A stretch of 64,000 nt of DNA, taken from NCBI RefSeq assembly GCF_002854065.1, contig NZ_CP024147.1; one strand, given 5' to 3'. Of this stretch, positions 6,092 to 8,103 are shown piece after piece; the first letter of the stretch is position 1, and every line of letters begins with the position of its first letter. The stretch is from Escherichia coli (GTDB taxonomy: Bacteria > Pseudomonadota > Gammaproteobacteria > Enterobacterales > Enterobacteriaceae). A program made the translations under genes and the position numbers. The notes beneath the pieces were generated by a model. That model was not told the DNA's origin, ran no database searches, and worked only from the letters and a program-made list of their open reading frames with translations.

Positions 6092-6419
6092 TTATGTTGG
6101 CGTTTTCTATTCAGTATAGAAGTCGGAGCGGCTGGGCGAGATGCGGAAGTTCTGGAATGTTTCTTTTTTTGGTGATGGTGAACTGATGGTGCCTGAAGCA
6201 ATTTGGCTACTTTTGCAATGTGACAAGTTATGGCACGGCTGGCTGGTGGCGAAGAATTTTGACGATTGAGGCATGCAGAAAAAACGGGCTCAGCTTCAGT
6301 TGATTAAATGAGGAGTGAGAAGTCCGAAACAGGATTTACTGTATAAATAAACAGCTATTTTGTTGAGGAAGGGTAAGATAACGGCGGGTGCCTGAAGCTT
6401 TCCGGTTTCAGGTTTACTC

Positions 6420-6495
6420 TGAGGTCTGGAAAGATGAAGCCCCAGGAGATATTTCTATCAACCCTGGGGCTGCCACTCCAAACCAGACAATTTGG
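6420..6495 (-). ncRNA. sokE: Putative Sok-type antisense RNA region for copy 1 (position inferred, not resolved)
   Basis: In hok/sok loci the antisense RNA is transcribed opposite the leader and covers the mok/hok translation-initiation region; placed by analogy only. Confidence 0.3.
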
Positions 6496-6531
6496 ATGGT
6501 AGTTCCTTCTTCGCATGGAGGCAATATAAAC

Positions 6532-6684
6532 ATGCTGACGAAATATGCCCTTGTGGCAGTCATAGTGCTGTGTTTGACGGTACTGGGATTTACGCTTCTG
6601 GTCGGAGACTCGCTGTGTGAGTTTACGGTGAAGGAACGTAATATTGAGTTCAGGGCTGTTCTCGCTTACGAACCGAAGAAGTAG
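6532..6684 (+). CDS. hokE: Hok-family type I toxin (50 aa), copy 1; an in-frame upstream ATG at 6496 gives a 12-codon mok-like extension
   Basis: [50 protein letters not shown] is a Hok-family sequence; the ybdK-entD position is where hokE lies in E. coli. Confidence 0.85.
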
Positions 6685-6923
6685 CCGTTGTGCGGGGAGT
6701 AATCCCCGCATATCCGGTTGTCAGGTCAGGATGGTAAGGCACCTGCTTTACACTTTCGCCCGCGGTCAGTGATGGCTGCGGGCGGTTTCGTTTTAAGAGC
6801 AATGATGAGTTTTGCCGACAGAAGTCCGAAACAGGATTCACTGTATAAATAAACAGCTATTTTGCTAAGGAAGGGTAAGATAACGGCGGGTGCCTGAAGC
6901 TTTCCGGTTTCAGGTTAACTCTG

Positions 6924-6998
6924 AGGTTTGGAAAGATGAAGCCCCAGGAGATATTTCTATCAATCCTGGGGCTGCCACTCCGAACCTGAACAACTCGG
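6924..6998 (-). ncRNA. sokE: Putative Sok-type antisense RNA region for copy 2 (position inferred)
   Basis: By analogy with hok/sok architecture; the leader sequence is duplicated along with hok. Confidence 0.3.
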
Positions 6999-7034
6999 AT
7001 GGTAGTCCCTTCTTCGCATGGAGGCAATATAAAC

Positions 7035-7187
7035 ATGCTGACGAAATATGCCCTTGTGGCAGTCATAGTGCTGTGTTTGACGGTGCTGGGATTTACGCTT
7101 CTGGTCGGAGACTCGCTGTGTGAGTTCACCGTAAAGGAACGTAATATTGAGTTTAAGGCTGTTCTCGCTTACGAACCGAAGAAGTAG
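7035..7187 (+). CDS. hokE: Hok-family type I toxin (50 aa), copy 2 (R41K relative to copy 1); in-frame upstream ATG at 6999
   Basis: [50 protein letters not shown]; second unit of the tandem repeat. Confidence 0.85.
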
Positions 7188-7308
7188 CCGTTGTGCGGGG
7201 AGCAATCCCCGCATATCCGGTTGTCAGGTCAGAGTGGTAAGGCACCTGCTTTACACTTTCGCCCGCAGTCAGTGATGGCTGCGGGCGAATCGTACCAGAT
7301 GTTGTCAA

Positions 7309-7966: not shown

Positions 7967-8065
7967 GCCTGATGCGCTACGCTTATCAGGCCTACATGGT
8001 CCTGCAATATATTGAATTGGCAAGATTTTTGTAGGCCGGATAAGGCGTTCACGCCGCATCCGGCA
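7967..8065 (+). repeat. REP/BIME elements in the entD-fepA spacer
   Basis: gcctgatgcgctacgcttatcaggcctac and gtaggccggataaggcgttcacgccgcatccggca are canonical E. coli REP palindromes. Confidence 0.75.
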
Positions 8066-8103
8066 TGAACGACGCGCACTTTGTCAACAATCTGACGTTA
8101 GCA

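Follow-up and report, generated by a model that had tools for sequence, protein, structure and literature searches.

The intergenic gap between ybdK and entD in the 64,000-nt stretch of Escherichia coli DNA analyzed here (the window) contains two intact hokE/sokE modules arranged head to tail (6318–7288). We conclude with high confidence that the chromosomal hokE/sokE type I toxin–antitoxin module is present here as a tandem array of two copies, located in the ybdK–entD gap of the core genome. Over 1,225 nt, the sequence matches the chromosome of E. coli CUWW06 with 100% identity; the PGAP annotation of that genome places two hokE genes, WP_000956467.1 and WP_000956465.1, in the gap between ybdK and entD. 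The ORF map of the window and this annotation agree with the location given in an earlier sequence-only reading of the locus. Judged from its sequence, each unit of approximately 470 nt is a complete module, although completeness does not prove activity.

Unit 1 (6318–6785) and unit 2 (6820–7288) lie on the plus strand, and both extend from the promoter region to a 3′ hairpin. The two units are separated by a 34-nt spacer (6786–6819), which starts with a T-tract, TTTCGTTTT, directly 3′ of the unit-1 hairpin. This spacer is absent from single-copy loci, and homologous spacers of 34–35 nt are found in all arrays examined, including that of E. whittamii. A global pairwise alignment of the two units shows scattered substitutions, as the sequence-only reading had described, with 23 of 469 columns differing (95% identity). 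The repeat period is 502 nt on the 5′ side of a single 1-nt indel and 503 nt on its 3′ side. The earlier description of two head-to-tail units of about 504 bp is thus right as to the two direct repeats but not as to their spacing. Repeats were detected here with a direct-repeat finder (families D1 and D2) and by pairwise alignment; Tandem Repeats Finder reports no repeat across the array because the period exceeds its 500-nt limit. A 19-nt tac-like motif at 6181–6199 (repeat family D3) was considered as the relic of a third hok unit and rejected. It falls within what remains of an acetyltransferase-like gene, of which E. albertii has an intact version, and neither Rfam nor BLAST gives a hok signal in this region.

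Both hok open reading frames are uninterrupted and consist of 50 codons followed by TAG, and the C-termini quoted for them in the sequence-only reading are correct. Copy 1 (6532–6684, plus strand) carries Arg41, is identical to WP_000956467.1 and is preceded by a Shine–Dalgarno sequence, GGAGG, at 6517–6521. Copy 2 (7035–7187, plus strand) carries Lys41, is identical to WP_000956465.1 and has the same GGAGG at 7020–7024. In addition to the conservative R41K exchange, the two copies differ by five synonymous changes, corresponding to a dS of 0.145, a dN of 0.009 and a dN/dS of approximately 0.06. The assignment of both products to the Hok family of small, hydrophobic membrane toxins is borne out by Pfam PF01848 (HOK_GEF), the full model of which (1–42) is matched by the 62-residue extended frame with an E-value of 7.7e-8, and by the PGAP name HokE for both proteins. 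The NCBIfam HokA and Hok-family models match with E-values of 1e-10 to 1e-13, under their curated cut-offs, and no HokE-specific model was matched in the NCBIfam profile search of the two proteins.

In each unit, hok is the 3′ part of a longer, mok-like frame of 62 codons, which is in frame with hok and extends it by 12 codons (6496–6684 in unit 1; 6999–7187 in unit 2, where the ORF list places the ATG at 6999; both on the plus strand). The 12-codon extension is invariant in 25 units, and the Hok and mok frames are intact in all 25 of the units examined. Reading of the sequence recognized no Shine–Dalgarno sequence at the upstream ATG, and for this reason we only infer a mok role for this frame. 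The Shine–Dalgarno sequence of hok is paired in a small local hairpin, both in the Rfam structure line and in minimum free energy (MFE) folds.

Both copies have a TACG at Tyr46 (6667–6670 and 7170–7173, plus strand), read from the sequence as a site for TadA A-to-I editing (Y46C). In the predicted fold, the UACG is located in the 9-nt loop of a local hairpin that is identical in the two hok copies. Cys29 is also present in both. Both copies have the sequence features of TadA-edited hok genes of the hokC/D/E type, and would be candidates for editing. The hokE mRNA of K-12 is transcribed, and its Tyr46 site is edited by TadA to approximately 40% (PMC5630033, PMC12214031). Furthermore, HokE of MG1655 is listed as a previously characterized toxic control (bioRxiv 10.1101/2025.08.07.668861).

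The upstream leader noted in the sequence-only reading is recovered in both units by Rfam RF01794 ('sok'), whose model represents the sense-strand hok leader. The full model (1–157) matches 6386–6540 with 80.2 bits and 6888–7043 with 79.3 bits, above the gathering score of 59. A −10-like hexamer, TAAGAT, read from the sequence, is the putative hok mRNA promoter in each unit (6374–6379 and 6876–6881, plus strand), and no recognizable −35 element accompanies it. The hok transcript would start near G6384 and G6886, and position 1 of RF01794 aligns at 6386 and 6888. The promoter would be weak, and the predicted hok mRNA of each unit is approximately 400 nt long. A scan for consensus sigma-70 promoters gave no site above threshold for either the hok or the Sok promoters; the hok −10 and the Sok promoter were placed by hand and from the annotation of K-12 sokE.

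The MFE folds of both full-length RNAs are closed by a pairing between the two ends of the transcript. The tac element, GCGGGUGCCU (6384–6393 and 6886–6895, plus strand), pairs with the fbi element, AGGCACCUGC (6737–6746 and 7240–7249, plus strand), in a helix of 10 bp, including one G–U pair, that closes approximately 350 nt. This agrees with the complementarity of leader and 3′ element that the sequence-only reading had proposed to be the tac/fbi pairing of hok mRNAs. Among 25 hok homologs from Escherichia, Citrobacter, Klebsiella, Enterobacter, Kluyvera and other genera, the pairing of the 5′ and 3′ ends is found at a constant position (+337 to +351), and the two elements covary (GCU/AGC versus GCC/GGC). 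The z-scores of the duplex against shuffled 3′ regions are modest (+0.5 to −4.0), so the argument for tac/fbi closure leans on the constant position and the covariation. MFE folds of hok mRNAs truncated at the 3′ end show no clear tac/ucb refolding.

Two further hairpins are predicted downstream of hok. The one just 3′ of the hok stop codon, UGCGGGGAG-UAAU-CCCCGCA, folds in both units (6691–6710 and 7194–7213, plus strand). It is in this post-stop hairpin that IS186 has inserted in K-12-like strains. The 3′ GC hairpin, which the earlier reading had assigned to each unit, is located at 6756–6785 in unit 1 and at 7259–7288 in unit 2 (plus strand). In unit 1, a terminator scan reports this hairpin together with the following T-tract (6756–6795) as resembling an intrinsic terminator. 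In unit 2 the hairpin is not followed by a T-tract, as in single-copy genomes, and how the 3′ end of this transcript forms is therefore uncertain; the entD gene downstream is convergent.

On the minus strand, each unit appears to carry its own cis-encoded Sok gene, which has a promoter and a terminator hairpin and overlaps the part of the leader that lies upstream of mok. The genes were mapped from K-12 sokE. That of unit 1 (6430–6488, 59 nt) has the 5′ tail GUCUGGUUUG, followed by the terminator hairpin and then UUCAUCUUU, whereas that of unit 2 (6932–6991, 60 nt) has the 5′ tail GUUCAGGUUC. Both RNAs are predicted to fold into a free 5′ tail of approximately 10 nt, a long hairpin and a U-rich tail. 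They differ at three positions in the first 10 nt, that is, in the free tail, and at one position in the hairpin. The putative Sok promoter of unit 1 (6496–6524, minus strand) combines a −10 hexamer, TACCAT (6501–6496), with a −35 hexamer, TTGCCT (6524–6519), across a 17-nt spacer. The corresponding hexamers of unit 2 (6999–7027, minus strand) are the same and lie at 7004–6999 and 7027–7022. They match the consensus at 8 of 12 positions, just under the threshold of the scan, and the distance from the −10 to the mapped 5′ end of Sok is 7 nt.

Plasmid R1's hok/sok system (PMC9841398) serves as the model for how such a module may work. By analogy with R1, the full-length hok mRNA, closed by tac and fbi, would be translationally inert. 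Slow trimming of its 3′ end would remove fbi, and the leader would then refold. The single-stranded 5′ tail of Sok would bind the exposed target hairpin just 5′ of the mok start, which would block translation of both mok and hok and trigger cleavage of the duplex by RNase III. Toxin would be produced only once Sok runs out.

The window locus shares with R1 hok/sok (parB) the Hok toxin family, the RF01794 leader, the tac–fbi closure, an antisense Sok that combines a single-stranded 5′ tail with a terminator hairpin, and the sequestration of the hok Shine–Dalgarno sequence. In contrast to R1, it is chromosomal and belongs to the core genome, its mok-like frame shares the reading frame of hok and exceeds it by just 12 codons, and it has the TACG editing site at Tyr46, for which no R1 counterpart is described. 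Killing after segregation, moreover, is not expected of a chromosomal locus and has not been seen at other chromosomal hok loci.

The closest relative is hokE/sokE of K-12 (b4415/b4835). It occupies the same ybdK–entD site, its unit is 95–97% identical to those of the window, and Hok, Sok, leader and 3′ elements are common to both loci; the window units both fall, on their location and sequence, in the hokE ortholog group. In MG1655 (NC_000913.3), sokE is annotated at 607733–607792 on the minus strand, 44 nt upstream of hokE (607836–607988), and IS186B follows at 608007–609351. This annotation agrees with the statement in the sequence-only reading that K-12 has one hokE next to an IS186 where the window has two copies and no IS186. 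The insertion in K-12-like genomes interrupts a unit that is complete in other respects; it lies in the post-stop hairpin, and unit positions 378–389 are duplicated on both sides of it. K-12 has a single unit, in which IS186B parts fbi from the rest, whereas the two units of the window are uninterrupted. K-12 also differs in having a third Sok-tail haplotype, GUUCGGGUUUG.

Tandem repetition is frequent among type I modules (PMC2887945). The ibs/sib, ldr/rdl and zorO-orzO/zorP-orzP loci, as well as the hok 'islets', resemble the present array in that whole modules follow one another head to tail within a single intergenic region, and their copy number varies among strains (PMC2887945, PMC11264685). 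The first three involve other toxin families, whereas the hok islets share Hok. Local duplication has placed 13.5% of chromosomal Escherichia hok genes in islets of two to six, according to an analysis of Hok coding sequences alone, not of Sok or the leader (bioRxiv 10.1101/2025.08.07.668861).

Comparison with the hokE loci of other E. coli genomes shows that the two-copy state is common. With sensitive blastn, a 75-nt query spanning the unit–unit junction matches at least 2,401 of the 5,426 complete genomes of E. coli (1,448 with megablast), and a diverged junction type occurs in a further 103 complete genomes. In approximately 45% of the complete genomes of E. coli, at least two hokE/sokE modules that look complete are present. 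The maximum is three junctions per genome, that is, four copies, so that E. coli ranges from one to four units. Carriers of the array include O157:H7, O55:H7 and O111:H8 strains. WL297 has three units, and the locus of strain 042 consists of one unit and lacks an IS. In a survey of one genome per species, homologous arrays with a 35-nt spacer were found in E. whittamii, Escherichia sp. MOD1-EC7003 and a divergent E. coli lineage, and single units in E. albertii and Escherichia sp. E1V33. A neighbor-joining tree of 25 units is a mosaic in which first and second positions are not separated. This contradicts two clades defined by position in the array, and position-specific orthology was therefore dropped. 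Taken as a sequence comparison, these data indicate that the array is an old copy-number polymorphism and not a recent duplication, and that arrays have probably been reshaped by unequal crossing-over and gene conversion.

The differences between the two units of the window bear on the Sok-target (sokT) hairpin of the hok leader, located at 6466–6507 in unit 1 and at 6968–7010 in unit 2 (plus strand; Rfam structure line and folds). Its 3′ arm contains the mok-like ATG. Six of the 23 differences fall within 6480–6504. The divergent stretch is immediately 5′ of the mok-like ATG (6496) and 40–60 nt 5′ of the hok ATG. The sequence-only reading had described the differences as clustered upstream of the hok start. 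The stretch that it quoted is present, but the clustering is borderline in this single pair (scan statistic, p ~0.05) and becomes clear only across many units. Among 25 units, the most diverse 25-nt window of the unit is 6471–6494, with a nucleotide diversity (π) of 0.17, the mean being 0.045 (permutation p 0.001). Among 35 unique units, π is 0.20 at 6472–6495 and 0.23 in the Sok tail, compared with 0.08 both at third codon positions and in the 5′ flank. The adjoining 36 nt (6496–6531) are nearly invariant, with a π of 0.003. Segment 6472–6495 is approximately 2.5 times as diverse as third codon positions and the 5′ flank. In 20,000 resamplings the observed value was never attained, so that it exceeds a simple neutral proxy.

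The hairpin itself is kept in spite of this variation. We observe 12 sokT hairpin haplotypes among 45 units from 25 genomes; 95% of the cells across these haplotypes are paired, and two AU-to-GC pairs are compensatory. Neighboring copies have different haplotypes in all 19 of the arrays sampled. Klebsiella spallanzanii and Enterobacter sp. provide two independent cases of tandem hok pairs whose members also differ in this loop. Predicted duplexes between Sok tail and target reach −45 kcal/mol for cognate pairs and −30 to −37 kcal/mol for cross pairs. The literature searched on hok arrays contains no description of Sok-tail variation among members of the hokE array.

That the two units reflect mis-assembly or a very recent duplication confined to this strain can be dismissed with near certainty. 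Repeats of approximately 500 nt can indeed be mis-assembled from short reads, and a single unit in the true chromosome would have overturned the earlier reading. An artefactual duplicate would be identical to its source, however, and these units differ at 23 positions; this, together with the presence of the same junction in 2,401 complete genomes, excludes an artefact. Homologous arrays in other Escherichia species speak against a recent origin as well, and so does the dS of 0.145 between the copies. A less easily dismissed account is that the array consists of intact but physiologically silent relics that are at most weakly transcribed, never release toxin, are retained solely because they are lost slowly, and have a neutral copy number. 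In its favor, the chromosomal hok loci tested gave no post-segregational killing (bioRxiv 10.1101/2025.08.07.668861, PMC12214031), IS elements have inserted recurrently (IS186B in K-12, IS150 in PM4-5, ISEcp1 in MS6193), and copy number varies freely from one to four. We nevertheless regard it as unlikely. Silent relics would not readily account for a dN/dS of approximately 0.06 between the copies, for Hok and mok frames that are intact in all 25 cases, or for a segment (6496–6531) that is nearly invariant although third codon positions vary. Nor are compensatory changes in the target hairpin and a retained TACG editing codon expected of them, and the hokE mRNA of K-12 is transcribed and 40% edited (PMC12214031). 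Both copies look maintained by selection on this sequence evidence.

The variation in the target hairpin can be read in two ways. We lean towards the view that the differences in Sok tail and target loop are neutral, this being the least constrained part of an otherwise heavily constrained leader, in which old alleles have been shuffled by recombination. Because the Sok gene lies antisense to its own target, every change in the target loop is mirrored in Sok, and the geometry guarantees complementarity in cis. The mosaic of units, the borderline clustering in the present pair (p ~0.05) and the cross duplexes, which on paper are still strongly favorable next to the cognate ones, fit this view. 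It is harder to reconcile with a π of 0.20 against 0.08 for the proxy and 0 of 20,000 resamplings, with different haplotypes in adjacent copies of 19 of 19 arrays, and with the tandem pairs of Klebsiella spallanzanii and Enterobacter sp. that differ at the same place. These observations would suit a second, more doubtful reading, which we put forward tentatively. The Sok tail and target loop may be under diversifying selection that makes co-resident copies orthogonal in their regulation, each Sok efficiently silencing only its own hok mRNA. The sample of haplotypes and diversity is small and phylogenetically non-independent, and these observations are therefore not decisive. Separate regulation of the copies through Sok, as proposed in the sequence-only reading, is plausible, and the population data strengthen the case for it.

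The array is real but ordinary, since it is present in close to half of the complete E. coli genomes and is already annotated in RefSeq; it is of a kind already reported, and the literature searched contains no paper describing the hokE array specifically. As a genome feature it is a common copy-number variant of a well-studied toxin–antitoxin family and carries little weight. The single, IS-disrupted hokE of K-12 is not typical of E. coli, and studies of Hok function, persistence and TadA editing that are based on K-12 therefore miss the natural state of the locus. The less ordinary result is the hypervariable stretch of Sok tail and target loop beside a nearly invariant one. If the copies were indeed orthogonal, the array would be a set of independently triggered toxin modules and not a redundant duplicate, and it would offer a natural case, within a single species, of antisense-RNA specificity evolving through compensated changes in one hairpin. 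Should selection against cross-talk be responsible, the hokE array would provide a simple natural system for the diversification of cis-antisense specificity after duplication.

The gap between ybdK and the hokE array contains, at positions 6141-6303 of the window, the remnant of an acetyltransferase-like gene of 234 aa, as seen from comparison with locus L013 (2072-2776). E. albertii has this gene intact, as apparently does E. whittamii, and it gives a weak RimL-type match (NCBIfam, E 3.5e-4); of the E. coli version, the two ends alone are left. The motifs EAIWLLLQC and ...NFD survive in a 42-aa ORF (6141-6269). The annotation of strain WL297 lists the counterpart of this ORF (L002 1558-1686) as a hypothetical protein. 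At the deletion junction, 19 nt (6181-6199) match the 5' end of hok, probably by chance.

Different insertion sequences are repeatedly found in the hokE locus (L064 2508-3852; L009 2627-3963; L071 1-369; L074 1-714). K-12-like strains carry IS186B/IS421 within the post-stop hairpin, with a target duplication of about 12 bp. In PM4-5, an IS150 copy sits immediately ahead of hok in unit 1, and in MS6193 unit 1 is replaced by ISEcp1. Directly downstream of the array, AR_0086 and 21AR0173 have an SDR-family oxidoreductase gene in place of entD, as does Escherichia sp. MOD1-EC7003, judged by its flank sequence (L007 1506-1798; L008 1509-1801; L011 downstream of 3755). Therefore, the right-hand neighbour of the hokE locus is also polymorphic. 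Farther along, the entD-fepA spacer of related loci shows matches to the Rfam sRNA ES036 (CssrF), at or near the gathering score, adjoined by sub-threshold naRNA4 (REP-like) matches. These come from L002 (3908-3995), L014 (4457-4543), and L013 (3954-4041), and the equivalent region of the window is near 7990-8100. In searches of E. coli genomes, two of the matches to the hokE unit-unit junction fall on records classed as plasmid, not chromosome.

Long minus-strand ORFs lie opposite the hok leader and coding region in the window (6355-6711 and 6857-7129, both on the minus strand). In many genomes, PGAP annotates such ORFs as 'hypothetical protein' (e.g. WP_009008364.1), with entries often marked frameshifted or partial. 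Such calls, made on the Sok strand, are probably spurious.

Klebsiella spallanzanii (L030, 1252 and 1771) and Enterobacter sp. JUb54 (L050, 2326 and 2859) each have an independent tandem pair of hokE-like modules, with periods of 519 and 533 nt, respectively. Few differences separate the copies of either pair, and some of them fall in the Sok-target loop.

The two units of the window's array end differently. A T-tract (TTTCGTTTT) follows the unit only at internal positions, where it is supplied by the spacer (hairpin and T-tract at window 6756-6795). In the terminal unit, the GC hairpin is followed by AATCGTACC (7259-7300), as in every single-copy locus examined, and 20 nt separate this unit from the stop codon of entD, which is convergent. 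Because the T-tract is confined to internal units, termination and 3'-end formation may differ between array positions.
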